A stretch of 64,000 nucleotides of DNA from Eledone cirrhosa (GCA_964016885.1 OZ024741.1:124434001-124498000), one strand, 5' to 3'; shown: positions 1,622 through 60,490, counted from the first letter of the stretch. Program-made: numbers and translations. The notes: generated by a model not told the origin, from the letters alone.

Positions 1622-1913
<292 letters not shown>

Positions 1914-3610: not shown

Positions 3611-4346
<736 letters not shown>

Positions 4347-8920: not shown

Positions 8921-8965
<45 letters not shown>

Positions 8966-8967
<2 letters not shown>

Positions 8968-11900
8968 TTTCTTTATTAACCACAAGGGTTTACATAAAGT
9001 AGACATTAAGGACAGTGCAGGACAATACAGGACGGTACAAATGGGCATTTCTGCGTGTAAAAAACAAAAACAGAGGTTGTAACAAAAAATAACAATGAAA
9101 AATTCCCCAATAGGGGGGAGACTTCGGAGGGACATTTGTGGAGAAACCCCAGTAAAAGGCCACGATGACCCTGACCACCAAGGCAGGGTGCCCTCTCCCA
9201 GTTTACTACCTTTAATTTACAGATATATACTCAGAGTAGGCCCATTCACTCGGGCCATTCTTGCTTCTCTCACCCATCTTTCAACAAAATGCTGGGAAGA
9301 GAGCACTTCCCTCTCTACTCTGATTTTCCTTTTCAAATGAAATTTGAAAAAGTCAATCAGAGCATCACCGAAGAGGTAAGTGCTCGTCTTCAGCCCTTTC
9401 AAACGTGTCCACCATACTATCTCTTTCGCCATGGCCACCAGACAGATAAAAACTGCCTGCCCTTCCCGGCTAAAGGAGGAGGGCGGGGCAATCCTCACGA
9501 TGGACTCAGATGATAGCCGGATCCGTCCTAGACGCGACAGCAGGTGTTCGACATAAACCCACAAGTCAGCAATTTTCGGATACTGGACGAGTGCGTGCAG
9601 GACGGTTTCGTCGCCCTGCGCGCATCTCGGACATGCCCGGCTGACGGCACGTCCATGCCTGTAGAGTTTATCCCGAACTGGCAAAGCTTCCCGGTAGCAC
9701 TGCCAGGCCAGGGATTTCTGGAAGTTGTCCATAGGACCCGGCTCGAAAGTTCTTCCGAAGAGATTGGCTAGTTGATTTTCGTCGACGCCTAGAGTTTCCC
9801 CAAGTACGTCGTCGCTCTTCCCCTCCACTAATCCTCTATAGAACGCCAAGGTGGAGTTTCCACCGATCACATTGCCCGACTGGTCGAGGGCTGTGAGCGC
9901 CTGACGACATTCCAGTCTCCAAGCGCTCCCTCTCGGTCTTCGCTTGACCCAGGGCTGCAGCTCCGTCAAGGAGACGAGCTGGGAAAAGACGTGTCTAGCA
10001 AACGGTGACCACACCTGATCACCGTCGAGGAAGAGGTGGAGATGTCGTAGCCTGAGCGCGTGTCTGCGCATCATCAGCCACGGCATGCCCAGCCCTCCAA
10101 GTAGCGGGTGTTGACAGCAGATGGACCGCCTGACCATCGGAGCGCGTCCCTTCCACAAAAAGCGAAAGAGCAAACGCTCCAGCGCAGTCAGGCGGGGCTT
10201 AGGACAAGGTACGACGGTCAGGCGGTAGTAGATGACGGACGCGATGTACGCGTTAGCCACCTCCGCTCGACCTTTCAGGGATAGCTTCCTCTCGGCCCAT
10301 TTCTGGGTGAAGAGAAGCCACCCTGCTCGTCACCTCGTCCCAGTTTTTGTCCGTCTGGAGGTCCGGACCGAACCAGACCTGTAGCAATTGAATCGGTCCG
10401 TCCGTCCAGCGCCCGACGACGCTGTTAGACGGCATGGACCTGCCTCTCCAAGTGCCGAGCTGCAGGCCCACTGACTTTTCCTGGTTGATCATTGCTCCTG
10501 TCACCGCTTCGTATTCTCTTAGTGTAGTGCCGATCGCCTCGATGTGTTTGGCGTTCGACACCACTACGGTGACATCGTCCGCATATGCTGACACGGATCT
10601 TCCGCATCCTAGTTCGCGCGGGACCCCCCTCAACGTCTCCAGTTTGTGCAGTAATGGCTCGAGAGTCAATACGTACAAGAGGGACGAGAGGGGACATCCT
10701 TGGCGGACCGAACGCATGTTGAACGGTTCCGAAAGGTGACCGTTCACTCTCACCACAGAGCAGATGTCGCTGTGCATGGCAGCGAACCAGCCTCTGAAGA
10801 CGGGCCCAAAGCCAGCCGCCCTCAAGACTGCCGCTAGGTAACGATGGTCGACCCTATCGAAGGCTTTCGACTGATTTAAATTTATCAAAGACCCACCCGT
10901 GCCAGGTTCCCTAGCTACCCTCTCTACGATGTATCGCATGAGTCGGAGGTTGTCGTGGATGGATCTGTCGGGAATGGCGCACGTATGCGCCTCTCCCACC
11001 AGACCACCAACGACAAGCGCCAACCTCTTTGCTAGTACCTTGGCCAAAATCTTGAACTCTGTGTTTAGCAGAGTTATGGGCCTAAAATTATCTATGTTAT
11101 CCCCCTTGTTCGGATCCTTTCTCAGCAGCGCCACCGCTCCTCGGCTCACAGAGCTGCGAATTCTCCCGTTCTGTTGCCAGTTGCAGTAGACGTCCGCTAA
11201 GAGGCCTCCGAACAAGTCTGGCATTTGTACGTAAAGTTCATACGGCAGGCCATCCAAATCAGGCGATTTACCCCTTGTGCAGCTTGTCATTGCCTCCCGT
11301 ACTTCAGCGGCTGTTATCGGCTTTTCGCAACACTCCGTCTCAGTGGCCGAGAGCCGCAGCAGTCCGTCGAGGTAGACACTAAAGTCCATCCCTCGATCCG
11401 GCCAGCCACTGCCCCCGAACAGTTGAGCGAAGTGTCGCTGAAAAGCTTCACACATTTTTCCGCGATCGAGTAGCATGCGCCCGTCGGGGTCCCCCAAAGA
11501 CCGGATCGTGGCTTTGTTGCCTCGACGCGCCTCCGCCACTCGGGCCCATTGAACGGCTTTCGTCCCCTCGTGTCTGAGAGCACGCACCCTAGCTCTGACA
11601 ACGCAGCCTTCGTGCTTTGCATTGGAGAATTGGTCAAGGGCCAATTTCGCCGCAAGTACGTCGGTCGCGATGCCTTTGCAAAGAGCCTCGTCTAATTTTC
11701 TAACTAATTCTCCCTCTGCTCTATTTTTCTCTATTGCTAAAGCCTTACTAAACCTAATGGACTCTATTCTAATTCCTCTTTTCAGAGCAAACCACCACTT
11801 ATTGTTGACGATGGCCCCCCCCCCGTCAACGCCCGCTTAACTAGTTCGCTAATCAGGTCTCTGTAGGCCTTGCGCGCTGGTAAGGACGCGTTTAGCTTCA

Positions 11901-14526
11901 GTAGCCGGGTCCTCGTTTATGAAGCCTATCTAAGTCAAGTACACAGATCACGAATTTGTGGTCCGTGTAGCTGCCTATCTTGAATTGTGGAGAGCCTGCT
12001 AGACCTATCTATTTCTCTACAAAATACTCTATCTAGATATGATCTGGATGACCCTATGCGATTTGTCCAAGTCCACATTGGCACATTCGGGAAATCCAAT
12101 CGGTACCTGTCAGACAGTTCAAAACACCTGAGCAGGCTGGTGAGGCTCTTGCACCCTCCTCTCCTATCCGCTAATCCGACACAGTCCCAGCGTGCATCTA
12201 AGATCCCGTTCCAGTCGCCCACTAACATTAAAGAGCGGGACGTTCCAAGAAAGGTCTCCAGACGCCGGAAGTAATCAGGCCGCCCTGCTCCTGTCGGGGC
12301 ATAGACGGCCACTAACCTGAAAGCTTGCCCGTCTCCGCTGGACACGTCTAACACCACCAACTTACCTTCTGGATCCAGGAAGATGGCCCGTATGGCGAGA
12401 TCCAAACGTCTCCGAAAAAGCACAGCAACTCCCCCCCCCCCCGCGATCCCGGACTGCTGGGAGATGCCTACACATCGTAGCCGCCGAAGATCGGTGCGAA
12501 GGCCCGTGCTTCGGAGATTCTGGTCTCGCTGATGGCCACTACATCTATGTTTAGTGACCTGAGGTCGTTGAGCAGGCGGCCCTGCTTCCAAGACAACCCC
12601 AAGCCACGCGCATTTATGCTGCCTATTCTGAGTGAGGTCATGTTGAAATGGAGTGGAAAAGATGGGAAAGACCACATACCTTACTTCTCGTAGAGGAAGG
12701 ATGGTTTCTCCATCCTTTTCACTGCTTGTGGCCTCCTCCGGAAGGATGTCCTTATAAATCCTCCTGGAGAGTGTTTGTCGGAAGTCTCCGATGTCTTTGG
12801 GGAATTTTTGTTTTAGTGTCGTGTACGTTTTCTGTGTGATGCGAGTGATTTGTATGTGTGGAGGTGGTGTGAACTTTTGTGTTGTTGTGTAGTCTTTTTC
12901 TGTGATGCTGCTGTTGTGTTGGATGTAGTGTAATAATTGGTTGTTGTTCAAATTTAATGCTGTGTAGTGTGTATCGTTTTGGTTGTTTTGTTTTGTTTGC
13001 GTTTGTTGTGGGTTTGTTTCTGTTTCGCTTTTTGGTGACTTTTGTGGTGTTGGTGATGGTGGTGTTAGGGTTAATGATGGTGATGGTGTTGGTGTTTGTG
13101 GTGATGGGGTTGGTGATGTTAGTGTGGATGGTGGCATATCTGTCTTAACTTTCTTGTTCGATAATTTATTTGTTTCCCTCTGTATTTTGTTTTTTGAGGG
13201 GGAAGGAAGAGAATTTTTTCTTTTTTGGTTTCTTTTTTTTCTTTTTTTTCCTGATACCGTTTCCCACTCCTCGTCGTCACAATCTGTCTCCATTTGCGAT
13301 AAGCCGGGGAGTGGAAAATCCTCCACAGGCGTTGGTTTTGGTTGTGGTGTGGTGGATGGTGTAGGCGCTGGTGCTATTTCTGGGGCGTTGAGTGGTGGTG
13401 GTGTTGGTTTTGCTACTGTTGCTGGGGTTGTTGCTGTTACAGTTGCTTCTGTTGTTGCTATTACAGTTGTTGCTGCTATTTCTGCTGCTGGTGGTGTTGA
13501 TGGTTGAGTCATTTGGGTGGGTAATAGAGGTGGCCTCAACCTTTTAGCCTGAGGGCAGAAAGCCCTTAGGTGGGTTCCTTCACCACAAACAACACACCTA
13601 GGTCTTCTGCCCTCGACGATTACGGTGAGGTGGCTGCCGTCAGTGAGGTCTATTACCTCTGGGATCTCTTCAATGCTTTTATGGTCCGCTTGGATCAGGA
13701 GCTCCATCCCAGATCCGGACCAGTTCTCCTGCTTTTCTTTTGCTATTTCTATTATTTTGGTAGATGCCGACGAGGACGGCAGCCATTAGCCAGGGAATTT
13801 TGATGGCCGGTGGAACGTGGGTCGCCTTGATCTTCACAAGTCTCTGGCCACAATAGCTTGGGATGAGTGTGAAGTCGTCACTTCTTAATGGGGCCATGGA
13901 GTGTTCTCTGGCCTCCTGTGGTATTTCAAAGAACACGTCCACGGTTCCATACTTCTGCCCACGTCTGATGTGGGTTTTCTTTGCCCACACAAGTCCCAAA
14001 GCTTTTTGGATTTGGGACTCAGATGCCCGTTCCACTCGGCGCGATTTTATGTTTATTGTTCGATAAGACACGGTGCATAGGCGACGTTGCTCCATTGTAT
14101 TAGGTGGGGGAGTGAGGCTGACCCTGTACCCATCTTTCTTTAACACCTGCAGTCATTGGGAATGGCGGGAAATGAACATCTGCCTGAGACAAATTTAAAA
14201 TATTGCTACTGCTTACAATTCCAGTGTTGGCAAACGTAGCAATGTTTACAATGGTGGTGTCGGTGTGAGGTCTTGGATTGTGAGGAAGGAGTGAATCTGA
14301 GTCATCCATTATTTTTCAAAGAAAAAATTTTTTGTTTGATAATTATAAAAAGTTTAAATTTTGGGCTCAAGGCCCCAATATTTTTGAGTGTCCTTTTCAG
14401 AAATCAATGTATGTGCACTTATATATAGTTAACAATAAAAATTTTCCATAAATGGCAATTTTAAATAACTGAAAATAACAAACCTTTGCGGAGCTCACGA
14501 TGATACGATTTACTACGTAGGTCGCA

Positions 14527-17640: not shown

Positions 17641-17875
17641 ATAGTAATAATAATAAATTTGAAGACTAAAATCCAAAGAAGGCTCGATAAGGATAAATAT
17701 ATATCAAATATATAAGAACCGGAGAGAAAATAGTTATTAAAATAACAGATTAAAGTTTAAGCAAACAATCGCTGCTTTCACACTTAACGAGATCTTCTGA
17801 AACTGAGTTTCAGAAGATCCCGTTAAGGGTGAAAGCAGCGATTCTTTGCTTAAACTTTAATCTGTTATTTTAATA
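17641..17875. repeat. HHR-bearing pLTR module, inverted pair (HHR 17805-17857 on plus)
   Basis: Same sequence as 3611-3960; palindrome centre ~17803. Confidence 0.75.
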
Positions 17876-31932: not shown

Positions 31933-31963
<31 letters not shown>

Positions 31964-32860
31964 GACAGGGGGGAAGAAAAAATGGCTTCACTTGTGCTTT
32001 CAACAAATTTATTTTCTTCACAAAATCCAAAAAGAATTTTTCTTAAAAAAAATTATTTTATAAATTAAGTTGTTGGTTGTTGGTTAGGTCTTAGGAGTTC
32101 TTGGTTAACGTAGGAGGTATTGTTTCGTTTTTAGAAAGACCTTTCACGCTGAGGTGCGCTTGTCAAACTGATGTGTATGTGGTGTGTTGTTCTATGTATA
32201 GGGATTTAACATGTCTGTGGTGTGGTAGGGGTTTCTTTTCTCCCCCTTTAATAAGTGCATGGGTGTAGGTGTGTTGAAAAAGTGTTCATAGCAGTAATGA
32301 GTTGAGACGGTGAGTAGGGTTGGGTGGGGAGAAACTTAGCAAGTGCGGCCTGCCCCGGTTATTCTCGAAAAATTCCTTTATTCAGGGGAAAAAGCTTTTA
32401 GCATCGCTTTTGTGTTGAGAATGGTCACAGGCAAATCGCACCTGTCAAGCTTGTGAATAATTATTTTTTTCTTTTTTTCCTGAAGAATTTTTCTACGTCC
32501 ATCCCAAAGTTAGTCCTTTGTTCAACACACACATATATATGTGTGCATATATGTACATACACACACGGGCATATGTAGGAACATATAGGCACACACCATC
32601 AATCACACACCCCTGTACAAATACACACACAAAAACATATAGACACATATAAAAATACACATACACATACGTACACACACGAATATGTACACATACCTCC
32701 ACATGGGTATATATATATATACACATATATACACACATACATACACATATACATACATACATATACATATATATATATAAATATATATACATACACATAC
32801 ACATACACACACATACACACACACACACATATATGTATATATATATATATATATATACAT

Positions 32861-32901
<41 letters not shown>

Positions 32902-33194
32902 TACATATATACATATACATACATACATACATACATATACCTACATACACATACATACATATACACACATAAAGATACATAACTAAATATACATATATAC
33001 ACACATACACGCATACATACACATACACACACACACACACACGCACACGCACGTGTGTACACACACACACGCACACACACACACATATACATATGTCCGT
33101 ATATATACCCCTCCGTTCACACATACATGCATACATACACACACATACACCCATACATCTATATATATGTATACACATATAAAGAGAGAGGCAT

Positions 33195-33295
<101 letters not shown>

Positions 33296-33560
33296 TATAT
33301 ATATATACATATACACACACATACATACACATACATATACACATATGTACACATAAATACATACAGACACATATACACATATATACACATACATATACAC
33401 ATACATACATATCCATATACATATATATACACACACATACATATGCACACATATATATATATACATATGTATATATATACACATACATACACATACACAT
33501 ACACATACACATACAAGTACATACATACACACATACATGCATACACATACATGTACATAC

Positions 33561-33591
<31 letters not shown>

Positions 33592-33658
33592 CACATATAT
33601 ACATACACATATATATACATATATATACACATACACACATATACATACATATACACAT

Positions 33659-33692
<34 letters not shown>

Positions 33693-33948
33693 ATATATAT
33701 ACATATATATATATACATATACATGTGTGCGTATACACGAGCACATAAAGACACATATACACATACACATACACATACATATACATACACACACATACAC
33801 ACACATACATCTACATACATACATATACACAAACAGAAACATACACACATGTACACACATATGTACATATATGCACATACATACACACACACACATATAT
33901 ATATAGGTACATACACATACACACACACATAAACATACATATCTATCC

Positions 33949-33997
<49 letters not shown>

Positions 33998-34070
33998 CAC
34001 ACACACACATACACACACACATATACACAAACATACACATACATACATGTACATATACACATATATATAC

Positions 34071-34133
<63 letters not shown>

Positions 34134-34379
34134 TATACATATATATATACACACACACATACAAACATACACACATCCATACATATATGTATATATATAC
34201 ACACACATACACACACACACACATACACACACCCACATACATATATACCCACACGTACATACATCCATACATCCCTACACACATATATGTCTGTGTCTCA
34301 CCGTTCATTCAGATATTCATGTGTATACATAAGAAGGAGGGGGGGGTAGTGAAATGGAATTTTACCTCCGAGTGTTAAT

Positions 34380-36708
34380 TCATTTTTTCGTGTTCAGCAG
34401 TGGTTTAAATTTTTCAATGAAGAATTCTTCTTTATATCTGCGGAAATGTTCGTTATCCGACTATATCTTGAAGAAAGGGAAGATTGTGAATTTTCCCTTC
34501 CCGCATGATGCAAAGTGTGCGCTACATGTAGTATTTCTGACTGTGGGGTCTTTAATTTGTTGTTTATGTACCCGGACTCTATCATGTAATCCCGTTCCGG
34601 TTTCCCCAATGTAATACTCTGTACACTGTGGACATGTTGCGCAATATATTAGGTTTTTCGTATTGCAGTTCATGTTTGCATTGACCTTGAAATTATCATG
34701 GTTTTTGAAGGACAACTGTTTGCCCTCTTCGATGAGTTCACAGCTTCCACATCTAGGGTCCCGCATTTCGTCACTTGCATTGATTCTATGTTGGTCGTAA
34801 ATTTTGCCTTGGTAATTAGTTTTTTACGGTTGGGTGCTTGGCGTCTGCTATAAATTATCTGTGTGTTTTTTAAGAGTGCATTCATTTTGGTAGATTGCTG
34901 TAGAATCGGGAGATACTGCTTAGCAGTTTTCACAATGTTGATGTTCCCTGGGTTGTGAGTGATGACAAAAGAGATAGCAGGGTTTTCTTTTTTATGTTGT
35001 GGGTTCGGTTTTCTCAGTGTTGTTATTGGGATGTTCTTAGCCTTGGAGATGGCTGCGTTGATGAGTTTCATCGGGTATTCTTTTTTTAAGGAATTTTTTC
35101 AGGTCACATAATCTTTTTTCTTGTAGCACGGGGTGTGTTGCTATAGTGCAGATGCGCCTTGCCATGTTGAAGGGAATGTTCCTTTTCGTATGTGAGGGGT
35201 GTGCTGACCGGAAATTTAAGTATTGGTGTGTGTCAGTGGGTTTGCAAAATAGGTCCGTTATGATATTTTCCCCTTCTTTAATGATGAGGATATCTAGAAA
35301 GGGCAGTTCCTTTTCGTTACATTCCATAGTGAATTGTATAGCTTCATGAAGCCTGTTTAGGATCGAATAACATTTTTGTAGGTCTGTTTGGCTTCTGTTC
35401 CAGAAGATGAAGCAGTCATCTAGGTAACGTTTCCAGTTTTTATTAATGTAGAAGGCGAAGTCGTGACTGAATGTTATTTGTAGTTGGGAATCTAATTTTG
35501 CCTCTAAGTGACCCACAACGAGCGTTGCATATGTAGGGGCCACTTTGGTACCCATGGCTGCTCCTTTTATTTGTAGATAAAGTTCGTTGTCAAAGAGGAA
35601 GTGGTTGTTTTCCAATACTAATTTAAGTCCTTCCAAGATGAATTCTTTGGGAAATCTTTCTGAAATGTGACTTGAGTGTTTTGTAATCCAGAAGTCCACA
35701 GCTTCAATCCCTAGGTCGTGTGGGATGTTAGTGTACAGGCTTATTACATCAAAACTGACTAGGATTGTATCCTGGTGTACTTTTGGGGGGATATAGTTAA
35801 GGAATTCCATATCATCTCTGATGTAGCTTGGAACTTTTTTACATAGGGGTTTGAGTATGATGTCTAATAGGTTGCTTAGACGTTGTGTGCTTGAGGCTGG
35901 GCCAGCAATAATGGGGCGTAATTTTAAGTCTGTCGGTTTTGGTGCTTCGATGTATGATGTATTTTTCCCTTTTATGCTGTTTTGGATTTCTATGGATTTG
36001 TGAATTTTTGGTAATCCATAGAAATTGCTGGTTTTCATTACGAAGTTGGTTAGGTAATCTACTTCTTTTGGTGTTAGGTTGTTTTGGTACTTTGTTGTTA
36101 GTTTGCCTATTTGGTTCCTCGATTTCCTTTCTTCGTTTTTAGTGATTTTCCTGTAGAAGTTTGCGTCATTCAAGTGTGCTAGGACCATATCTTTGTAGTG
36201 GTTTGTGTCCATGATGACGATTGCTCTACCTTTGTCCGCTTCTTTTATTATTATTGAGGAATCTCTTTGTAGCTTGTTCAATGCTAGTAGTTGGTCTGTA
36301 GGGATGTTGCATTTGTGTTTCGTCTCGGCCGTATTTGTACGTGCTGATCGGCGAAGGCAGGTTATGTATTCCTCCAGGTATTTATCTCTATTTAGCGGGG
36401 GTGTGAAGTTCTTTTTTGTTTTTCACCAGTGATTCTTCCTCGTATTGTACACCCTGGAAGAATTCTCCTAAGCGTAATTTTCGACAGTATTCTTCTGTGT
36501 CTTTTATAACATCGGCTGTGTCTGCTTTCGGAGTGGGAGTGAACTTCAGTCCATTTTCTAACAGTTGTATTTCTGGTTGTGTTAATTTCTTGGCTGATAT
36601 ATTGATTATTTTTGGTTCGATTGGTTCTTTCTCGTCAGGTGCCACTTGAAAGGTGGTGCTTTTTTCTTTTTTTCTTTCATTTGGTGCGAGGCCCCTAGTC
36701 CTAAAAAA
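34380..36708 (-). pseudogene. PLE A RT-GIY-YIG ORF2 (few frameshifts)
   Basis: ORF pieces 36388-36717, 35037-36281, 34670-35071, 34461-34766. Confidence 0.9.
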
Positions 36709-37820
36709 TGGGGACAATTTGGGATAGGGGTGTTTCTGTTGTGGTGAAACCTTTGGCCCGCCGGAACTTCATGTCGGTAACTGGTTGGGCGATAGACTCT
36801 TGCGTGGCCGTTGCTGTATGGGGGTCTGGTTCTTCTGTTGATTCGTTCAGTATTCATGTGTCTTTGATTTTGTCTCCGGTGATTGTTCTTGGTGTTATGG
36901 CAGTGGTTGTATCTGGTTCTGGTGTTGAGTATTGGGTCTGTATGTAGTTGTGTGTTTGGGGTTACCCAATATCTAGTTGTTGTTGGTTTATTGTGTGTGG
37001 GTGCTTCATTTCTTGTGTTGTTGTATTTTCCTGAGTTCTGGGGTTTCCTATGGGTTTGTTTTCTGGGTTTTATTTGGTCTTTCCCATAGTTATCTTCATA
37101 TTCTTGAAGCCATTGAGTTCTTGACTCCAAGATTTTCTTTGATTTTAACTCCTCTCTAGTTGTATCTGTCTGCCATAGGTTGAGGAGTTTTTCACGTACA
37201 TTGCCGCTGCTTCTTTTGTTTATTTCCTCTTGGATGGTGGTGTCGCATTTTTCAAATTTCTCTTTGAATTTTGGCACTCTTAGGCGGAGTAGGGTGATTT
37301 CTGTCTCAAGTGTTTGGAGTGCTAGATTTAGTCTTGTTGCAGTTTCTTCCTTTGATTCCGATGGTATTTCTTTAATTCGGAATTTTCTCGGGAGGATAAC
37401 TGGTTCCTTGCTAAGCCATATTTCGTATGTGTCTGCTAGGTTTTCACTCCTCAAGGCTTTCCAGTATGCCTGTTTCCTTTGATTTAATAAAGGTTTCCAA
37501 ATGTTTTTCATTTGGTTTCTTTTTCTGTAGGCTTCTTTTTCTAGGTTCAGTTCATTCCATTCTTTGAATGCATTATTGGTGATGGAGTTCTGTTCATGTG
37601 TAGCTATTTCAGGAGAAAAGGTTTGTTCTTGTTTTTGCCGGTCTGTAATTAGTGAATCAAGTTTTTCCCTGTAGCTGCGTGTTTGTTGTTCCATTTCTTG
37701 TACGGCATTCGTAAGGGAATCATATTTATCTATTATTATGGTGAGTTTTTCTGATATTTCCTGTAGTAGTGTATCCGATCTGAGGGATTCAGTAGAGGAT
37801 TTTGAACGTGTGTTAGCCAT
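36606..37820 (-). CDS. PLE A ORF1 (~404 aa, helical/coiled-coil-like with basic C-terminus), intact
   Basis: ATG at 37820 (MANTRSKS); homologous to the decayed ORF at 48693-50046. Confidence 0.7.
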   Translation of the reverse strand: MANTRSKSSTESLRSDTLLQEISEKLTIIIDKYDSLTNAVQEMEQQTRSYREKLDSLITDRQKQEQTFSPEIATHEQNSITNNAFKEWNELNLEKEAYRKRNQMKNIWKPLLNQRKQAYWKALRSENLADTYEIWLSKEPVILPRKFRIKEIPSESKEETATRLNLALQTLETEITLLRLRVPKFKEKFEKCDTTIQEEINKRSSGNVREKLLNLWQTDTTREELKSKKILESRTQWLQEYEDNYGKDQIKPRKQTHRKPQNSGKYNNTRNEAPTHNKPTTTRYWVTPNTQLHTDPILNTRTRYNHCHNTKNNHRRQNQRHMNTERINRRTRPPYSNGHARVYRPTSYRHEVPAGQRFHHNRNTPIPNCPHFLGLGASHQMKEKKKKAPPFKWHLTRKNQSNQK

Positions 37821-37992
37821 TCTGTCTTGTACAAGGGGATAGAATATTGGAAAATGTGTGTAATCCTTGGTACAGTTAGGTATATTAAGACAGGGGGGAA
37901 GAAAAAATGGCTTCACTTGTGCTTTCAACAAATTTATTTTCTTCACAAAATACAAAAATAATTTTTCTTAAAAAAAATTATTTTATAGATTA

Positions 37993-38552
37993 ATGATAAT
38001 TTCAAGGTCAATGCTAACATGAACTGCAAAACGAAAAACCTAATATATTGCGCAACATGTCCACAGTGTAAAGAGTATTACATTGGGGAAACCGGAACGG
38101 GATTACATGATAGAGTCCGGGTACATAAACAACAGATTAAAGACCCCACAGTCAGAAATACCACATGTAGCGCACACTTTGCATCATGCGGGAAGGGAAA
38201 ATTCACAATCTTCCCTTTCTTCAAGATATGGTCGGATAACGAACATTTCTGCAGATATAAAGAAGAATTCTTCATTGAAAAATTTAAACCACTACTGAAT
38301 ACGAAAAAATGAATTAACACTCGGAGGTAAAATTCCATTTCGCTACCCCCCCCCCTCTTCTTATGTATACACATGAATATCTGAATGAACGGTGAGACAC
38401 ACACATATATGTGTGTAGGGATGTATGGATGTATGTACGTGTGGGTATATATGTGTGTGGGTGTGTGTATGTGTGTGTGTATATATATACATATATGTAT
38501 GGATATGTGTATGTTTGTATGTGTGTGTGTATATATATATGTATATATATGA

Positions 38553-38598
<46 letters not shown>

Positions 38599-38667
38599 AT
38601 ATATGTGTATATGTACATGTATGTATGTGTATGTTTGTATATATGTGTGTGTGTATGTGTGTGTGTG

Positions 38668-38762
<95 letters not shown>

Positions 38763-38981
38763 GGATAGATATGTATGTTTATATGTGTGTGTATGTATGT
38801 GTATGTACCTGTATATATGTGTGTACATGTGTGTATGTTTCTGTTTGTATATATGTATGTATGTAGATGTATGTGTGTGTATGTGTGTGTATGTATATGT
38901 ATGTGTATGTGTATGTGTATATGTGTCTTTATGTGCTCGTGTATACGCGCACATGTATATGTATATATATATATATGTATA

Positions 38982-39034
<53 letters not shown>

Positions 39035-39099
39035 ATGTGTATATGTATGTATATGTGTGTATGTGTATATATATGTATATGTATGTGTATGTATATATG

Positions 39100-39132
<33 letters not shown>

Positions 39133-39375
39133 GTACATGTATGTGTATGCATGTATGTGTGTATGTATGTAATTGTATGTGTATGTGTATGTGTATGTAT
39201 GTGTATATATATACATATGTATATATATATATATGTGTGCATATGTATGTGTGTGTATATATATGTATATGGATATGTATGTATGTGTATATGTATGTGT
39301 ATATATGTGTATATGTGTCTGTATGTACATATGTGTATATGTATGTGTATGTATGTGTGTGTATATGTATATATA

Positions 39376-39432
<57 letters not shown>

Positions 39433-39549
39433 ATGCCTCTCTCTTTATAGGTGTATACATATATATAGATGTATGGGTGTATGTGTGTGTATGTATGCAT
39501 GTATGTGTGAACGGAGGGGTATATATACGGACATATGTATATGTGTGTG

Positions 39550-39589
<40 letters not shown>

Positions 39590-39701
39590 CGTGTATGTGT
39601 GTATATATGTATATTTAGTTATGTATCTTTATGTGTGTATATGTATGTATGTGTATGTAGGTATATGTATGTATGTATGTATATGTATATATGTATATAT
39701 G

Positions 39702-39732
<31 letters not shown>

Positions 39733-39735
39733 ATG

Positions 39736-39768
<33 letters not shown>

Positions 39769-40657
39769 ATGTGTGTGTATGTGTATGTGTATGTATATAT
39801 ATTTATATATATATATGTATATGTATGTATGTATATGTGTATGTATGTGTGTATATATGTGTATATATATATATACCCATGTGGAGGTATGTGTACATAT
39901 TCGTGTGTGTACGTATGTGTATGTGTGTTTTATATGTGTCTCTATATGTTTTTGTGTGTGTATTTGTACAGGGGTGTGTGATTGATGGTGTGTGCCTATA
40001 TGTTCCTACATATGCCCCTGTGTGTATGTACATATATGCACAGATATATATGTGTGTGTTGAACAAAGGACTAACTTTGGGATGGACGTAGAAAAATTCT
40101 TCAGGAAAAAAAGAAAAAAATAATTATTCACAAGCTTGACAGGTGCGATTTGCCTGTGACCATTCTCAACACAAAAGCGATGCTAAAAGCTTTTTCCCCT
40201 GAATAAAGGAATTTTTTGAGAATGACCGGGGCAGGCCGCACTTGCTAAGTTTCTCCCCACCCAACCCTACTCACCGTCTCAACTCATTACTGCTATGAAC
40301 ACTTTTTCAACACACCTACACCCATGCACTTATTAAAGGGGGAGAAAAGAAACCCCTACCACACAACAGACATTTTAAATCCCTATATATAGAACAACAC
40401 ACCACATACACATCAGTTTGACAAGCGCACCTCAGCGTGAAAGGTCTTTCTAAAAACGAAACAATACCTCCTACGTTAACCAAGAACTCCTAAGACCTAA
40501 CCAACAACCAACAACTTAATTTATAAAATAATTTTTTTTAAGAAAAATTCTTTTTGGATTTTGTGAAGAAAATAAATTTGTTGAAAGCACAAGTGAAGCC
40601 ATTTTTTCTTCCCCCCTGTCTTAATATACCTAACTGTACCAAGGATTACACACATTT

Positions 40658-40664
<7 letters not shown>
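37993..40664 (+). mobile_element. Inverted 3' copy of PLE A (GIY-YIG end + pLTR + tail)
   Basis: Reverse complement of ~31958-34699, plus an extension matching 37845-37885; ends in (TA)n. Confidence 0.92.
40414..40452 (+). ncRNA. HHR-like motif, U3-A8 core (mirror copy ~32132-32170 on minus)
   Basis: TTGACAA-GCGC acctca GCGT-GAAA-GGTC-TT; stem I weak. Confidence 0.5.
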
Positions 40665-40732
<68 letters not shown>

Positions 40733-46832: not shown

Positions 46833-49800
46833 CTGTGTGTGTGTGTGTGTGTATATATATTATGTGTGTGTGTAGCATTAACTATGCAGGAGAAATCCAA
46901 ATCATTCACTGCGTTCTGAGGTGATTAAAGTGTCCTGTCTTCGATCGTATTGTCATGAGTTCGATTTCCGGTGACATATTGTGTCTTTGAGCACTGTAGT
47001 TTATTTCACAAGCATGTTGCTCTGTTCATCGAAGTAGTACATACACTGACAGATGCACAGCATTATATAGTACTAGCAGTGGTTTTCTGCTAGCATGTGT
47101 AGTATGTATATTGATATTATACACAAATATATATATATGCATGTAAATAAAATCGTAATTGACAATATACACAGCAATTGAACGAAGACTGTGTTACACT
47201 GTCTTATGTAATCAGTAACGTAATCCATGATACGTTTAAAAAAAGACGATATTATATATAAACTGCATTAGGAGAAAATTAGCGACGGAAATATATACTA
47301 TTATAAGTGTTATAATATAACGGCCGCTAACCGGAAGTGTTGACATTTGACAATTTTAAAGAAGTGAATCTTTGAACAAGCTATAAAATATATTTAATCA
47401 ACAGCCACGAAATTTAGTAGATAAATTATGTAATATTCATTCATTATTTATTCAAAGTAATGCAACTTATTTTACAAACGGGGTAAAAAATATATATTCT
47501 GGATGCAGTCCCGCACTCCTGTCTTTATTATAGTTAAGATTCATATTTTTATGTATCACTATATAATATTTTCCCAGAACACGTTGGTCATCTTTCATTG
47601 AAAGACATTCAAATAATGTTTCGAAGAATGTAATAAAAGTTATAAGATTGAATGTACCTCTACATTTATATATATCTAGTATCAATGGAAATATTCCCGT
47701 AATGCATTCAACATTTCAAACGTAAGGTCATGTGTGTTATTCCCGGTAGCTTACTGTGTCTTTGTGGAAGACACTTTATTTCAAGTTGCTCCAGTCCGCA
47801 AAGGTATTTAAAATGAGTTTATCTGTAATTCATATGGCCGGACTTGTCACACACTGAGCCACGCTGAATCTTCCAGAAAGCTAAGTTGAGGGTTCATGTG
47901 TCTGTGGAACATTCAGGTACATATTGATTTAGCGAGTAGGCTGATCCATTGATCAAAACAACTACAATGGTCGGAAACAGACTGTCCAAGCGATAACAAC
48001 GGTAGTTCGACTGCCTCCGTATAATTAACACTGTATTTTTTTGTTCTTATTTTTGTTGTGCCTCAGTAAGGATTATTTAACTATATCTATTATGTTCGTA
48101 GGCGGCGAATTGGCAGAGTCATTCAAACACTGGATAGAATTGTCTCAAATCCCACCGAGGTCAACTTTGCCTTTCATCCTCTCTCTAACTTTCTAACTTT
48201 CCCTATAAGAAATCTGCTGTACTCAGGCCTGGAGAGTACAGGAATTGATTCAATTCAATTAGAAGCTATATAACCTAAATTTTAAATTCGCTAGCCGTTT
48301 ATAAACTAAGCATTGTTTGTGTCTACATTTTATATACATATATATAAATACCTACTATATACCGACGAAAGCTCATATATATATATATACAGTAGCACCT
48401 GTACAGAAAGATGAACCAGACCAATTGAATATGAGAGTGAAGAAAATTCCAACTCTTCAGATAAGGAAAATAAAATGCCTGAATCGTTCAATTAACACTT
48501 AACATTTAATATTCTATCATACTATTTCATTATAATACCATTATAAATTTTAAAGGATTGTAAATAAAACGAGTAAATCAGACAAAGTTGGAATTCCTCT
48601 TATTAATATAATCTTCTATACACAATCATACACACCAGTGTATATTTATATATATATATATATATATATATTCCTATTGTGTATATGCCAACATGTTTGG
48701 AAAGCAACAAATGAAATCAACAGAATCAGAAAGAATTCTAAAGGAGATATCATCGAAATTATAAACACTTATCACGATGATTGACACACAATCCTCTATT
48801 TTAAAAGAAATAGAAAAACAATCTACAGACGGAAAACTTATAACTGAACATATAAACTCTGAAATTAAGAATTTAGCTGAAATTATACCAACAGTTATCA
48901 AAGATACAAGAGAAAGCCTACCACAACCCCCTTGGATGTCAGAACTAAACGAAAGAAATTTGGAAAACAAAACACATCGGATAAGAATAGAAATGTGGAA
49001 GACATGGAAAAAATTTCTTAACATAAGAAAACAAAACTTCTGAAAAAGCATACAAATGCGAAAAATATGTCGAAACACATTCGAAATGGATCTCTCTAAC
49101 GGCACCCATACTCCCTCGTAAATACCTAATTACAGAAATTGCAGGAGAACCAGAAGAAGAAACAAAACTCCGATGGGAACTTACATTGACAAAATTCAGG
49201 ACGGACATCTCCATTTCTTAATGTAAACAATCCCGCTACAAAGCCAAATATGAAGCTATCGATGACCAAATTGAAGTTGAAATTTCAAAGCTAACGACTG
49301 GTATTATAGCTGAAAAACAACGAAAACTATGGATCAGAGATATCTCAAAAGAAGAAAACAAATAAAAAAAGGTATGGCAGCAGAAACAATTATTTCTCGA
49401 CGAATATGCTGCAAATTACGGTAAAGACTCTGGAACCCTGAGAAAAAGCATTGAAAGTGGACAATCTCACCAACACAACATACGCCAGAACACGTGCCAA
49501 CACAAACACTCACCTTACCTTGAATCAAAGAAGAACTACGGTAATAACTCTTCGCCTTTTCTACAAAAACACCCTATCGCACACAGCATGAACAAAAAGC
49601 ACAAACACGATAGATATTCCGTTGACCAGACCATGAGAAGTAGTAAAACCAAGAGATCATTCTCAAGATCTCAACAGAGACTACCCACAAGGAATGTGGA
49701 AACAAAACGTAGAATAACCAGATCACTCTCAAGATCTCAACAGAGATTACCCACAAGATACTGGGCGAAAAAACGATCGAAACCTGAAAGCAAACCTGGG

Positions 49801-51645
49801 TCATTTCCCCAGTTTGTTAAAAATAATGCTAACAAGAAATAGAAAAATAATATACATAATACCAAAAATAGGACAAAATACATAACGAAACCAAATATAA
49901 TATCACGACCAAAAGTTCATCAAGCGAACACCGACAGGAATATAAATCCTGAACAGAGAAAAATCCATTTTTTAACGTCAGGACAACAAAAACCGGGAAA
50001 AGAAAAACTCCAGGAGGAAACATACCCAAAACAACTGTACACGTAGATCCTAAAATGATTAATTTATCCAAAAGAGATCTTGACAATGATGAAATGCAAA
50101 TTCTGTCAAAAGGACTGAAATTCACACCGACTCCAACAGTCAACTATCAAGAACTGAAGGAGGATACCCAAGAATTCTGTCGAAAATTACGTCTTGTAGA
50201 ATTATTCGCTGATAAAAGTAATGGGAGTGATGAATCTCTAGTAAAGAGTAAATCAAATTTCACTCCCCCAAAAGGAAGAAATATCTATCTCGACCAATAC
50301 ATTGACATCCTGTCTAAATTTCCTCTTAGACGTAATACTAATGTTAGGCCAAACATTAACAAATCAGAAATGTCTGAACTTAAACGTATACAAAATGATA
50401 AAACAATAATAATTAAACAAGCAGATAAAGGGGGTGCAGTTGTTATAATGGATGCTGAATACTACAAGGATTTGGTTGAGGAACAACTGAAAGACACATC
50501 ATTCTATCATGAAATACCGTCAAATATAGACTACAACATCATGAAGAAGATCAACAACCTGGCTTCAAAATACTACAACTTACATACTGATAAGGAAAGA
50601 GACTACATCACCAATTTTTAGCCAAAACCCAGCAACCTGTATGGCCTACCGAAAGTTCACAAGTCAAAAGAAATACAACTGGCAGTAAGAGAACAAAACA
50701 GTGAGTACATTAAATAAACTACACCCAAAAGACTTAAAACTTAGACCTGTTATAGCTGGTCCAACATGCCCCACCCACCGTCTAAGCAATTTTGTTCACA
50801 TTATTTTGAAACCACTATGTATTCACATACCCAGTTTCATCCGGGATGATATCGACTTCCCAAAACCACGGAAACGAATTCACTTCTACTTAGTTTTGAT
50901 GTTGTAAGCCTGTACACCAACATTACACATGATTTAGGAATAAAGGAGGTTAAATACTGGGTGGAAAAACATAGAGAAGTGATTCCCATCAGATTCACAG
51001 CGCCATTTATATTAAACGCAGTTAAACTTATTCTGGAAAACAACACTTTCTTCTTCAATGGAAAGAATTACATCCAAATTAGAGGTACAGCGAACTCTGT
51101 AATGGGATACTCAGAACAACAACTCTACCAAGAAATAGAGGAAAAATATAGTACGGACTTTAGAAAGTACATTGAAAAATCTTGGAAGAGATACTTTGAC
51201 GACTGTTTCATCATCTGGACAGAATCTCTAGATACTCTGGTTGAATTCAATATCCTCCAGAATAACTTACACCCATCTCTCCAATTCACAAAAGAGATGA
51301 GTAGGACCAAATTACCATTCCTAGATATAATGATAATCAAAAACGACACCACCATTACCACGGATATATATTATAAACACACAGACACCCATCAATATCT
51401 GAATTTTAAGTCGTGCCATCCACCTCATACAAAACGCAACATCCCATACTGCCTAGCCAGAAGAATTTGTACCATTGTAGAAGATACGAATACCAGGTAC
51501 AAACGCCTAACAGAACTAAGAGAAGTTTTGCTGAAACAAAAATACCCATCTCTACTTATAGAAAATAGCATACAGCATATAAAGATACCTATACAACATA
51601 GGACAACCCAAGGAAGAAGAAACCAAGAACTGGTCATACCATTTA

Positions 51646-51830
51646 TAATTGTTTCTACTTTAGGCACAAGGCCAGCAATTACCCAGTGCATTACTGGTAC
51701 TTTATTTTATCAACCCCGTGAGGATGAAAGGCAAAGTCAACCTCGGCGGGATTTGAACTCAGATCATAAAGGGACGTAACTATGCTGGAAAGCATGGCGT
51801 CCGACCCTCTACCGATACTGCCAATCAACC
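51646..51830 (-). mobile_element. SINE inserted into the PLE B linker
   Basis: Interrupts IPFI..THNP; reverse complement of the 29191 family. Confidence 0.85.
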
Positions 51831-52763
51831 GCACAACCCATATCACCAGAATATCTTCAACACTGCCAAAGCAAACCTACCGATCATTGCTCAAAGTAAT
51901 GAATTAAAAGGCTTAATCACAGATCGATTTTGACTCTTAGTAAAAGACAGCAAAAAAATTGAAGCAATTACTAACAAAAGCAAAGTTTTACCTTAACAAC
52001 AAAGACCAATCATTCACTGTATCTAAATGCAATGATAGTCGATGCGGCACATGTCAATCCATACACGCCGGTCAATATATGAAAACAAAAACTGGAAAAA
52101 TATTCCCAAATGCAAATATGAACTGCAAAAGCAGAAATCTAATTTGCTGCATTAAATGCCCGAATTGTGAAGAACTATATGTCGGTCAAACTGGAAATGC
52201 ACTATCGAAACGTGCACGGGTACACCGTCAGCAAATCAGAGACCCAAATGTCCGTCAGATACCCCTAAGTAACCATCTAGCAACATGTGGTCAGGGAATA
52301 TTTATAATATTCCCATTCTAAATTTACAAAGCCCAGGTGAAATCAAGAAAAGAATTTTATTGATAAATTCAAACCAAGCTAAATGAACAATAATAATGCT
52401 TAGGGGTATTACTTCTACTATGACTATGACTACGACCACTAACAACAACAACAACAATAATAATAATAATAAAAGTGATGTTGATGGTGATGATTACTAG
52501 AAAATGCTATTTTCATCATTTCTAAAAATAGCAAAACAATTGATGCTTTGGATAAGATCAATTAGTGGTCGTAAGATATGCTCAACCAACCGTGACGCCT
52601 AAACCAATCAGCTTTAGTAATTCAGTGAAATTACACACCGATTGATCGAAATACAGTTTGCAAGAATTAGCAATCTGGAGCCACTTTTCACTGTATATAA
52701 GGTACAAAATTTACCCATCTCATTACAGTTGAAAATTGCAAACTTGACTGTCACCACACATTA

Positions 52764-52802
52764 TGAACCTGAAGATTGCGAAAGCATGAAAGTACTTGTT
52801 CA
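52764..52802 (+). ncRNA. Minimal type I hammerhead ribozyme in PLE B pLTR
   Basis: TGAAC-CTGAAGA-T TGC GAAA GCA T-GAAA-GTAC-TT-GTTCA; palindromic stem III; predicted cut after 52797. Confidence 0.85.
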
Positions 52803-52915
52803 ATTAACACTTAACATTTAATATTCTATCATACTATTTCATTATAGTAGCATTATACATTTTAAAGGATTGTAAATAAAACGAGTAAATCAGACAAAGT
52901 TGGAATTCCTCTTAT

Positions 52916-52957
<42 letters not shown>

Positions 52958-52959
<2 letters not shown>

Positions 52960-54116
52960 GTTTGAAGTTAGAAGGCCAGAACGATGCAGGTATGGATATA
53001 GAATATAATTACAAATGCAAAAGATATTGCTGACAATTAGTCTTTTACCTTAAATTTATTTGAACATCCTTATATTTCGAGATAATATCCCTTCTTCAGA
53101 GCTATCAGACGAGAGGGACTAGATATCCAGCTAGCCCACTCAGGACCTTCTCGACGCGGACAGCTAACCAAGAGACAATCCATCTGACATGACAGCCGCT
53201 GCACGCTGGCCAACTCCCCCATCAACGACACAGACCTATGCCACCAGGTTTATGTCGTATACAGATTAGAGTGCGACAAATACAGCAATTTCTACATAGG
53301 TAGCACCACCAGACCACGTCACATAAGAATAAAAGTACACCTCAACACTAATGCTTCCTCATTTAAGAAACACCTAGCGAAATGCAAAAACACCGACAAA
53401 AACATAATAATTAGGATAGAAGCTAAGGAAAGAAACCTCGGCAATCTTAGAATTTAAGAAGCACTAATTATAGATAAAACGCGGCCACCAATCAATAATA
53501 GACTAGAACTCAACATGATAGAGCACCTAGCCCCACACTTACACCTCCACGTATCCTCTCACACCCACACACACACGCACCCACACACGCACACTTACAC
53601 CTTTACTTATTCTCTCTCACACATACACACACATAGACCAGTTTTAACATGATAGAGCATCTAGCCCCCACATTTACCTATAAACATATCTTCTAACACT
53701 CACACACACGCACACACACACACGCATGCTTATACCTTCACGTATTCTCCCACACACACATACACACACTTAGACATACATGGCCAAACCTTTTTAAAGG
53801 GAGACAACCCTTTATCCACCTAACCTTCACTCTTTGACATTAGAAATAGAATGGAATTTCTATACTATTTCCTGTCAGCATGACTTGGCAAGCTAATTAG
53901 AACATAGGATTAACTCCTTTATCTCCCTCTGAAGAAGGGATATTATCTCGAAATATAAGGATATTCAAATAAATTTAAGGTAAAAGACTATTTGTCAGCG
54001 ATATCTTTTGCATTTGTATTTATATTCTATATCCATACCTGCATTGTTCTGGCCTTCTAATTCCAAACCTTTATACCTCACTACGCAATGCTTCAAGTAA
54101 ACTACCATTTCCTTCT
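52958..54116 (+). mobile_element. 5'-truncated PLE (GIY-YIG ~53190-53530) with inverted pLTR
   Basis: C..VYVVYRLECDK...FYIGSTTR..H.R.K.H..LRI*EALII..P.IN; 52960-53100 is the inverse of 53928-54068. Confidence 0.85.
53926..53960 (+). ncRNA. Minimal hammerhead motif
   Basis: CCT-CTGAAGA-aGGGATAtTATCTC-GAAA-TA-TA-AGG. Confidence 0.7.
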
Positions 54117-56231: not shown

Positions 56232-59200
56232 TGAAAATAGGGAGAAAAAGACAATTATTAGGAACAAAAATATATTTGTTTTCTTTTTATTTTTTTTTTT
56301 TTTTTCTGAGTTAGAACATGTTTAAAACAAAATATTTTACTTTGTGTGAAGTGTTGAGGTATTAGTTAATTTATTTATTAATTGACAATGGCATTTATTA
56401 ATTTATTTATATATTTAATAATTATCTATTACCGGTTTCAGCATTTTATGCATTATCAAAAGGGGTAATATGTATTGGTATAAAATGGTGATGTTGAACA
56501 TGTTAAGGAAATGGTGAAGAAAGAATAATGTTATTTACAAACAAGTTTTTTGAAGTGAAAAGAAAAAAGAAAAAAAAGAAAAAAAAGGGGTGGCTAATGT
56601 CGAACATAATAGGGTAATGGGAAATAAAAAATAATATTATTTACAGGCATAGTTCTTGAAGATAAGCAGTTCAAAATGTGTTATTATGTCAAGAGTGTTC
56701 AGTTGATCCATGATAGAGCCAAATGGTAGTCTGGGGTTTGATATGATTTCCCCTTTTAGAGAGTTAATATGCAGAGGGGGGTAATTCAGGGTGGTCAAGT
56801 AAGTGAGAGAGAGTATACAATTTATATAAGAAAAAGGATTAGGTAGGGTGTTAGGGAGGTATATCTTTAGAGAAACATGGGGATTTGGTTTTGGTTCATT
56901 GTTCGTTCCAGCTTTAGTTTAGTCCGAAGTTTAGTCCATTAAGTAGAGGTTGGAATTTGTCAATGAAGTACGTTTCCTTATTGGTACGATGGATGAAAGA
57001 AGCGTTGTCTATGAATTTGTAAATGGGGAAAATTGTTAAGTTTGGATGTTGGTTAGGTGCACAATTGGCGAATATGTTCACTAAACACAATCTTTATGAA
57101 TTCCTGTATTTTGATTTGTGATCTATGGGCGGACATACGTTGTCGGAGGCTGTTTTTTGTTTGTCCTATGTAGTTCTCTTGACAACCTGAGCGGGTCAAA
57201 ACATAGATTAGGTTTTCAGATGCACATGTAAAGTTGTGTTTAACTGTGAAATGTTGTCCTTGTTTAAAATGGAATGTTGAAACTTCTATTAGATTTATGC
57301 ATATGCTACAGTTGGGTCTTCCGCATTTTGTTACTGTAGGGTTCATTGTGTGGGTTGGTTGGATTTTGGCTTCTGTGAGGATGTTTTTTATGGATTTAGG
57401 TTGTCTTTTGCTCTTTATGATGTTGTGTGTTTGGAAGATTTTGTTCAGTCTTGGGTCTGTTTTTAGTAAAGGAATGTTCTGGAGGATGGTGTCGAATGCC
57501 TCATTGTTGAGGGGGTTGTATGTGGAGATGTATGGTAGAGTTTTCTGTTGCGGTTCATTCCTGGGTTTGGAGTGTCTGAGTTCCTGGATGTTGCGTTTTA
57601 GGGCACGTTGGAATCCATTATTGATTAGGGATGGCGGGTAGTTTCTGCTGATAAGTGTGTTCTTTAATTATTCTAGTCGTGTGTAGCATGTGTATTTATC
57701 TGAAACTATTGTGCAAATCCTTCTGGCTAAGTTTATAAGGAATTGCAATTTTGGTATGGCGAGGGTGGTAATAGTTGAATGGAAGATATTGTTTGGAGTC
57801 TGTGGGTTTGTAGTATATGTCTGTTTCTATTTTGATGTTTGTTTTCTTGATGAGGATGTCGAGGAAAGGGAGTTATTCATGGCTGTAATCCATTGTAAAT
57901 TGTAAATTTGTGTTGAGTCCATTTAGAAGGGTTTTTTAACACAATCAGTCTATCTATACTATCATGCCAGAGGATGAAGCAGTCGTCCAGATACCTCTTC
58001 CAGTTTTTTCTATGTGTAGGTAGAAGTGGTTACCGTATTTGTCTAGAACTTTGCGGTAGAGAGTGGTTTTCAAATATCTCATGACAAGGTTGGCGTATGA
58101 GGGGCTACTTTCGTGCCCTTGGCAGTCCCAGATTTCTGTCTGTAGCATTTGGCATCGAATTCGAAGAAGTTGTTTTCCAAGATGAATTTGAGTCCCTCCA
58201 ACACAAATTCTTTAGGGATGCGCTGTGGAAGTTCACTAGGGAAATGTTCAAGCCAGAATTGTATTGCCTCTATACCTAGGTTGTGTGGGATATTGGAATA
58301 TAAATTGATGACATCTAAGGTTACTAGTAGGGTATGTTCATTATTGAGTGTTGTTGGGAGGTGTTTGAGCATGTCAAGGCCGTCCCTTATGTAGCTTTTT
58401 ATGTGTTTTAGGAAAAGTTTAAACAGAATATCTAGGAAGTTGCTTAAGCAGTGGGTTTCACATGTGGTACCTGCTATTATGGGTCTTAATTTAAGGTCAT
58501 CAGGAGGGGGTATATTGGTGTAAATGTCTGTGGCTTGCAGGCCGTGCCTATTACTTCGCTTTTGTGTGTCTTTGAGATACCGTAGACGAGGCCGGTTCTG
58601 CTTTTGAAATTAGTGATGTAGTTGTATTCTTTGTCTGTAAGGCCTTCTTTGTAAAGGGTTGTTAGAGATTTTAGGTTTCTCATTATTTTCTGTTGTGTAG
58701 TGTTGCGCCTTTTCGTAATATGTTTGGTTTTCTAGAGTTGAGAGTACTAGCGTCGTGTAGTAATCTGCACTCCCTTTAATCTGCCTCTTTGATTGTTAGG
58801 GTTTTGTCGTTCTGTAGACTATTAAGACCATTCCATTCTTTTTTGCTTAGGTTTGGTTTTTGTTTATGTCTGTGTAGGTGGTCGTATGGGTAATTAGTAA
58901 TGTGTTCGCAGAATTGATCGAGGAATTTGTCCTTGCCTTTTGGTGGGGTGTAGTTGCTTCTATTTCTGGCTATTGAATCATATTCATTGTATTTGTCGTA
59001 TAGTTGCTCGCTGAGTCTTTGTTTTCTGCAGAATTCTGCAATATCATCCTTCATTTCTGGGTAGTTTGGTCGTTGGAGAGTTGGTGTAAAGTTTAGACCT
59101 TTGGAGAGTATGTTGATTTGGTCTGTTGTTAATTAATAAATAAATTAACTAATACTTCAACACTTCACACAAAGTAAAATATTTTGTTTTAAACATTTTC

Positions 59201-59284
59201 TAACTCAGAAAAAAGAGAAAAAAATAAAAAGGAAAAAAATATATTTTTCTTCCTAATAATCGTATTTTTCTCCCTATTTTCATA
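56228..59284 (-). mobile_element. 5'-truncated Penelope-like element C with inverted pLTR
   Basis: ILSKGLNFTPT, IKEAD, LDVINLYSNIPH, GTAKGT, RYLDDC, CGRPNCSIC, LIY..YIGQT; 56228-56390 is the inverse of 59127-59284. Confidence 0.88.
56425..56465 (-). ncRNA. HHR-like motif, U3-A8 core
   Basis: Minus strand TTGATAA-T GCAT aaa ATGC T-GAAA-CCGG-TA; stem I eroded. Confidence 0.55.
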
Positions 59285-59299
59285 TATATATATATATAT

Positions 59300-60490
59300 A
59301 AGTATTTATGTATGTATACGTACATACATATATGTATACAGACGTTCAGTAGTATGTCACCTTTTTGTTCAACAGAGACACAGGAACGATGTACTAATTT
59401 CAAGCTTATTAGCTATCGTCAGCATCGTATACCTTCCTGCCAGATGGTTGAACGTCTAAAAGTATATACTTTCCTTATGCATATTAACGGCTGAGCAGCC
59501 TAATTTGCATATCGAGTGAGTTCAGTCGGCCGAGAACACCGAAAACGATAAATGGAATGGAATGAAACGAAATTTCATTTCTCACTCTTAATACGGTACT
59601 TACTTAAAGTAAGTATGTATGTATGTATGTATGTATGTATGTATGTATGTATGTATGTATGTATGTATGTATGTATGTATGTATGTATGTATGTATACGT
59701 ACATACATATATGTATACAGACGTACAGTAGTATGTATATGTATACATACATGCACACATATATATATGCACGTATCTGTTTACCGAACATTTATTATAA
59801 TTCTCGGTTTGTTTGTTTGTAAATAAACAAACAGCCCGAATTACGCCGTACAGTGTTTAGGCAACCATGTCACATTTTTGTTCAACACTGACACAGGAAC
59901 GATGTACTAGTTTCAAGCTTATTGGCTTATACATACTACTGTACGTCTGTATACACATATGTATGTACGTATACATACATACATACTTACATTTAAGTAA
60001 GTGCCGTACTAAGAGTGAGAAATGAAATTTCGTCTCATTCTATTTCATTTATCGTTTTCGGTGTGCTCGGCCGACTGAACTCACTAGATATGCAAATTAG
60101 GCTGCTCAGCCGTTAATATGCATAAGGAAAGTATATAAGTTCAGACGTTCAACCATCTGGCAGGAAGGCATACGATGCTGACAATAGCTAATAAACTTGA
60201 AACTAGTACATCGTTCCTGTATCAGTGTTGAACAAAAAGGTGACGTGGTTGCCTAAACACTGTACGGCGTAATTCGGGCTGTTTGTTTGTTTACAAACAA
60301 ACAAACCGAACATTATAATAAATGTTCGGAAAACATATATATATGTGTGCATGTATGTATATATATATATACATACTACTGTACATTTGTATACATATAT
60401 GTATGTACGTATACATACATACTTACATTTACGTAAGTGCCGTAATAAGAGTGAGAAATGAGATTTGGTTTCATTCTATTCCATTTATCT
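59300..60490. mobile_element. Non-coding tandem and inverted ~440-510-bp repeat with HHR in each unit (candidate non-LTR retrozyme)
   Basis: Units on minus (59300-59928) and plus (59929-60490); HHR at 59385-59429(-), partial at 59899-59927(-), and 60172-60215(+). Confidence 0.7.
60172..60215 (+). ncRNA. Type I hammerhead ribozyme of the tandem repeat
   Basis: ACGATG-CTGAC(A/G)A-TAGCT aata A(A/G)CTT-GAAA-CTAG-TA-CATCGT; 6-bp stem I; consensus of the copies is canonical. Confidence 0.8.

Follow-up and report, generated by a model that had tools for sequence, protein, structure and literature searches.

According to the sections of the published sources considered here, and these sections are the basis of every citation below, the function of the hammerhead in PLEs is called unclear (PMC8557442), and an absence of in vivo evidence is stated for the minimal PLE hammerheads (PMC4209133). 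For an anole PLE, the same kind of excerpt reports that reverse transcription is initiated internally on the RNA, at a point 3' of the hammerhead cut, and that RNA-seq gave no reads beginning or ending at the cut (PMC11167929). Publications already cover this type of element with its hammerhead motif, its partial-tandem arrangement, and its frameshifted ORF1. In a literature search whose scope stopped short of Arkhipova 2017, Lunse 2017, and figure S2 of PMC11167929, we found no account of a peak at the hammerhead cut among the genomic 5' junctions of PLEs. Here we describe a PLE in a 64,000-nucleotide stretch of DNA from Eledone cirrhosa (the window) in which the upstream partial pLTR begins at the predicted hammerhead cut, and we weigh what this single junction may record.

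Results

Structure of the Element

The element is a decayed, full-length PLE with a C-terminal endonuclease, and it has the usual partial-tandem form, with a 125-nt direct repeat of the pLTR (table 1). Its reverse transcriptase (RT) is of the PLE type, with 54% to P0001, a protein with RT and GIY-YIG Pfam hits, over residues 1–535 (E 4e-173); the Pfam scan of the window's own RT fragment alone gave no match. There are 273 RT homologs, those named being mostly bivalve. The linker reads CNDSRCGTC and has the CX2-5CxxC form as defined in the relevant section of PMC8557442, and the GIY-YIG domain is recognized both by PF01541 (E 0.0028, below the curated cut-off) and by a match of 62% to P0001 residues 589–693. 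The decayed ORF1 resembles that of the PLE at 36609–37820, with 30% and 39% identity (E 8e-12 and 7e-23). Judged by these features, the element appears to fit the Neptune/Nematis type. The short repeat inserted in the RT region has further matches of 85–92% at 21140, 21674, 24776, 29194, and 46089, and one of 75% at 41085.

The TTTTTTA heptamer lies 126–198 nt before GLKF, in the -1 register from ORF1 to RT, at 49968 (+) and also at 36708 (-), and it recurs in five of the 11 related loci examined (L001, L003, L009, L011, and L012). It is likely a programmed frameshift site; a frameshift between ORF1 and RT is a feature of PLEs in figure 1 of PMC8557442.

Table 1. Features of the element, and 5' junctions adjoining hammerhead or hammerhead-like motifs with their offset from the predicted cut.
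Feature	Position	Strand	Offset of 5' junction (nt)	Remarks
Short (TA)n tract	48375..48389	.		seen in sequence; possibly 5' half of insertion target
96-nt segment	48390..48485	.		between TA tract and element; host flank or filler captured at insertion
Upstream partial pLTR	48486..48610	+		96.8% over 125 nt to 52798–52922; starts at first base past predicted cut
Decayed ORF1	48685..49975	+		ATG 48685; ends at TTTTTTA near 49968, -1 register to RT frame
Decayed PLE reverse transcriptase	49953..51921	+		GLKF, DKG, YFDD; stops and frameshifts
Secondary insertion of short repeat inside RT region	51636..51832	-		P0001 match halts at residue 535, resumes at 537
CX4CX2C linker and C-terminal GIY-YIG endonuclease	51944..52380	+		frameshifted; translation SKCNDSRCGTCQ ... 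CIKCPNCEELYVGQT
Minimal type I hammerhead	52764..52802	+		predicted to cut at T52797/G52798; found by motif scan, controlled with shuffles
3' pLTR part downstream of cut	52798..52922	+		ends at presumed RT start (by comparison with sections of PMC11167929)
3'-end (TA)n	52919..52958	.		common to element and inverted arm of next PLE; from sequence
5' junction, this element	48486		0
5' junction, PLE, inverted arm	53102–54068		-31
5' junction, hairpin	1672–1682		about -40 to -45
5' junction, repeat	59356–60335		-23
5' junction, PLE	56233–59281		+41	putative U3-A8 variant core
5' junction, PLE	31961–40665		+67	putative U3-A8 variant core
5' junction, related locus L056			-194
5' junction, related locus L054			beyond -700	upstream repeat holds whole hammerhead

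Several other elements share the window. The PLE at 31961–40665 is young, its arms being 97–99% alike; its 3' UTR contains ~1.7 kb of microsatellite, a copy of which is present in each of the two arms, main and inverted, and its hammerhead consists of a putative U3-A8 core at 32166 only. The 3' UTR of the PLE at 56233–59281 has a putative U3-A8 variant hammerhead with a poor stem I (TTGATAA ... GAAA CCGG TA) at 56459 (-). At 59356–60335 (-), a noncoding repeat with a unit of ~510 nt carries a type I hammerhead (core 59422) and takes the form of a partial tandem with an inverted arm; this repeat is retrozyme-like. A hammerhead-like motif with a GUC triplet lies outside the identified elements at 60785–60752 (-), and two LINE-type elements in opposite orientation (Pfam RT, zf-RVT, and endonuclease) occupy 5166–13785. 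Among the related sequences, the PLE contigs L081–L086 (1.8–3.9 kb, 37–49% to P0001) come from bacterial genome bins and are probably host contamination. A 23-nt pLTR pattern had 0 matches in the metagenome and viral contigs, and protein scans of the viral contigs gave no relatives.

The Hammerhead and the 5' Boundary

The hammerhead of the 3' pLTR is built of stems I and II around a CUGANGA / GAAA / UH core: a 5-bp stem I of TGAAC (52764–68) and GTTCA (52798–802), CTGAAGA at 52769–75, a stem II of 3 bp, GAAA at 52788–91, and a palindromic GTAC, with U16.1 at 52796 and T52797 (U) as H17. Stem I, with all its 5 bp, forms in one UH register only (0 bp in the other five), and the strict descriptor finds 0.007 matches per shuffled 64-kb window (150 shuffles). 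Motif scan, register test, and shuffles confirm the hammerhead with predicted cleavage after T52797 that had been noted in a preliminary description of this DNA. At its gathering threshold Rfam gave no match; the MFE fold contains stems I and II, and its stability is ordinary (z 0.23). The GTAC of stem III allows a dimer, and two copies of the motif are predicted to co-fold via this palindrome with an energy of -18 kcal/mol; the register would pair the 8-nt palindrome AAGUACUU and so over-pair A14 with U17. Hammerheads with U17 cut slowly. Self-cleavage is a predicted activity of this motif; if cut in vivo, the RNA would be expected to have its 5'-OH end at GUUCAAUU.

The preliminary description had the upstream pLTR starting at the cut within about 2 nt, and the boundary turns out to be sharper than that: the local alignment of the repeats begins at G48486/G52798, so that the offset from the predicted cut is exactly 0. 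Going upstream from the junction, the repeats differ at -1 (C vs. T) and -3 and agree at -2, with 10 of 40 bases matching. It should be noted that, through microhomology, the cDNA may in truth end a few bases farther 3', and that one T/C change at -1 would put the junction at -2. A family H17 of C, with the junction at -2, is unlikely, T52797 being absent among the 40 best-supported differences listed (there are 314 more). For a single junction, an exact offset of 0 has a chance of about 1 in 120–360.

Neither the window (best E 0.18) nor the 86 related loci (best E 0.31) gave a match to the 96 nt at 48390–48485, and alignments of this segment to the element were equalled by shuffles. Two candidate readings of this segment, as an inverted arm or as a deleted hammerhead, were rejected, the scores being equalled by 111–214 of 300 shuffles; the CCTGAA match was equalled by 847 of 2000.

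Other 5' Junctions near Hammerheads

Eight 5' junctions adjoining hammerhead or hammerhead-like motifs were scoreable, six in the window and two at related loci, and one of the eight lies at the cut (table 1). Three of the seven off-cut junctions fall at or within the 5' part of the core. One exact match among eight junctions is expected in 2–7% of cases (spans of 360–120 nt) before allowing for selection, and the junction at 48486 was picked for its coincidence. It is also the sole PLE 5' junction scored in the window without a tie to an inversion. Across the 86 related loci, an internal repeat boundary adjoins a hammerhead in L054 and L056 only, the others having their repeats at contig ends or no hammerhead-plus-repeat. 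The tally excludes three short insertions that start or invert within ~6 nt of a core-like, noncanonical CAGAAGA.

Several hammerhead-bearing elements have 5' junctions or inversion points on the 5' edge of the core or slightly within it, away from the cut: at 53927/53101, 1672–1682, 59927, 1429, 3813–3819, and 17799–17811, and at 52762 in the contig set X5. A site where transcription begins or where the RT stops could lie behind such ends.

The 3' pLTR across the Family

The preliminary description had proposed tabulating 5' junctions across the family for a peak at the cut. This was carried out in part, over the region 52475–52920, with three contig sets (X1, X5, and X6) and one RAD run (X19); the best runs share at most 0.42 of the window's words and need not include this locus. 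The family is very abundant (summed X1 depth of 3–8 x 10^5 over the pLTR vs. 3–20 per single contig listed), and a genome assembly would therefore give a strong test. No step-up in depth was found across 52798 between bins 52775–89 and 52805–19 (729k vs. 702k in X1, 150k vs. 70k in X5, and 301 vs. 229 in X6), with a bin-to-bin variation of about two-fold and with partial contigs making up only 86 of 2221 in X1. The main rise in X1 depth lies upstream of the hammerhead, at 52715–52745 (43k to 387k, about nine-fold), and is absent in the RAD run; this rise may mark a very abundant short element of ~200 nt derived from the pLTR.

Of 30 joints, 15 are listed; none of these ends at 52798, and the closest resumes at 52800–52803. 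Nor does a loose end fall at 52798 in the 23 rows listed of 415. The 12 ends of six inversion joints, among those listed, span 52496 to 52859. In X5, 19 contigs have loose ends at 52762 (agreement 0.57), with joints there as well; X1 has no end at 52762 among those listed. Five X5 joint ends at 52811–52816 may lie there because alignments of ends closer to the cut were trimmed. Six of the seven places listed where X19 reads begin or end lie on AATT (52541, 52619, 52734, 52805, 52859, and 52907, with 52859 via the majority allele); these were read as restriction ends and dropped as element ends. X19 is blind to a junction at 52798 because an AATT cut site lies at 52802–05. As far as the tabulation went, the results speak against a family whose 5' ends lie mainly at the cut; ends there could form a minority class.

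Discussion

We lean toward the view that the position of this 5' end is a coincidence, the copy having an ordinary, variable 5' end produced by truncation. A tandem transcript would have been reverse transcribed with priming at the nicked (TA)n target, the start being internal and 125 nt beyond the second hammerhead. The RT would then have passed this downstream hammerhead, still uncut, and gone on across the ORFs and the 5' UTR until it reached the preceding unit. Ends of this kind are scattered around the hammerhead, and the copy would have ended at one such position through an RT stop or through loss in 5' joining. This is favored because the family data show neither a depth step nor a listed end at 52798 and seven of the eight junctions lie off the cut; because upstream Penelope copies are "variably 5'-truncated" in the section of PMC2377424 considered; because hammerhead mutants of the anole PLE inserted normally, with no RNA ends at the cut, as reported in part of PMC11167929; and because the residue at H17 is U, with A14 and U17 both occupied in the predicted dimer. 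Against truncation stands the offset of exactly 0 in a full-length copy, whose 5' end may on that account be the end of its template, and a junction without inversion and with filler, as run-off followed by a template jump would give. The family test is moreover weak, with few partial contigs, noisy depth, most rows outside the listing, a blind X19, and possibly trimmed X5 ends, and two of the eight junctions rest on putative variant cores.

A template cut by the hammerhead is the principal alternative, which we regard as tenable but doubtful. The upstream ribozyme of a tandem transcript would have been cut and the downstream one left uncut, the RT then starting 125 nt past the second hammerhead and running off the 5'-OH end; cleavage would have proceeded as a dimer or with help from a PLE protein, by a minority route within the family, and the 96 nt might have been gained by a jump onto a foreign template after run-off. 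Besides the exact offset in a full-length copy and the predicted co-folding of two motif copies via the palindrome, this reading draws on published precedent, in the portions considered: in vitro, PLE hammerheads are cleaved with the assistance of protein, and with an RT start beyond the cut an RNA that has been cleaved would still be usable as a template (PMC11167929), and the 5' junctions of R2 record the positions of ribozyme cuts (PMC3774820). Other published results weigh against it, uncut RNA being the dominant substrate in vitro (PMC11167929) and minimal hammerheads poor cutters in vitro (PMC4209133), as do the lack of a depth step and of listed ends at 52798, the seven junctions elsewhere, and the selection of the finding for its coincidence. 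The preliminary description took the boundary for a genomic footprint showing cleavage in vivo; the geometry, cut upstream and uncut downstream, is compatible with this, but "showing" is too strong for one junction, and on present evidence cleavage in vivo is slightly less likely than coincidence.

We consider it very improbable that the 5' end owes its position to a transcription start or repair junction near the cut yet independent of it, either through an RNA start a few tens of bases upstream or a few bases downstream with microhomology or trimming setting the boundary at 48486, or through inheritance of the boundary from a variant element to which 48390–48485 belongs: a Penelope transcript does start within the upstream pLTR (in the section of PMC2377424 considered) and ends recur near the 5' edge of the core (53927, 1676–1681, 59414, and 52762 in X5), but the 96 nt match nothing examined and X1 is without a listed end at 52762. 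The weights given to these three readings are our judgements and were not computed.

A single junction does not settle cleavage in vivo. If true, a minority class of such junctions would be the first in vivo readout of cleavage and of retrotransposition of the cut RNA, and a reproducible peak of junctions at the cut would show cleavage in cells from genome sequence alone, as for R2.

Comparison with Known Systems

Compared with the canonical EN+ PLEs of the Neptune/Nematis type (Craig et al. 2021, PMC8557442, in the sections considered), the element has the same order of RT and GIY-YIG, a CX2-5CxxC linker, and the DKG and GxKF motifs; it further shares the partial-tandem pLTR, the pLTR hammerhead, the (TA)n target, and the optional, frameshift-separated ORF1. 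No structural difference emerged, and a partial pLTR starting at the hammerhead cut is absent from the descriptions in those sections. The hammerhead itself resembles the published minimal PLE hammerheads (PMC4209133, in part) in being of type I with a 5-bp stem I, an extra base before stem II, and a palindromic minimal stem III with a predicted dimer; it differs in its 3-bp stem II without the G10.1–C11.1 pair that is called highly conserved there. The HDV-like ribozyme of R2 (Eickbush et al. 2013, PMC3774820, in part) belongs to another element and another ribozyme class, and was studied through many junctions together with cleavage in vitro as against one junction here; what the two have in common is the use of genomic 5' junctions as a record of the cut. 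PAc, the Poseidon of Anolis (Frangieh et al. 2024, PMC11167929, in part), is from another clade and its hammerhead overlaps the ORF start; like the element described here, it has AT-rich targets and 3' ends ~100 nt past the cut (85–92 nt in PAc and 125 nt here).
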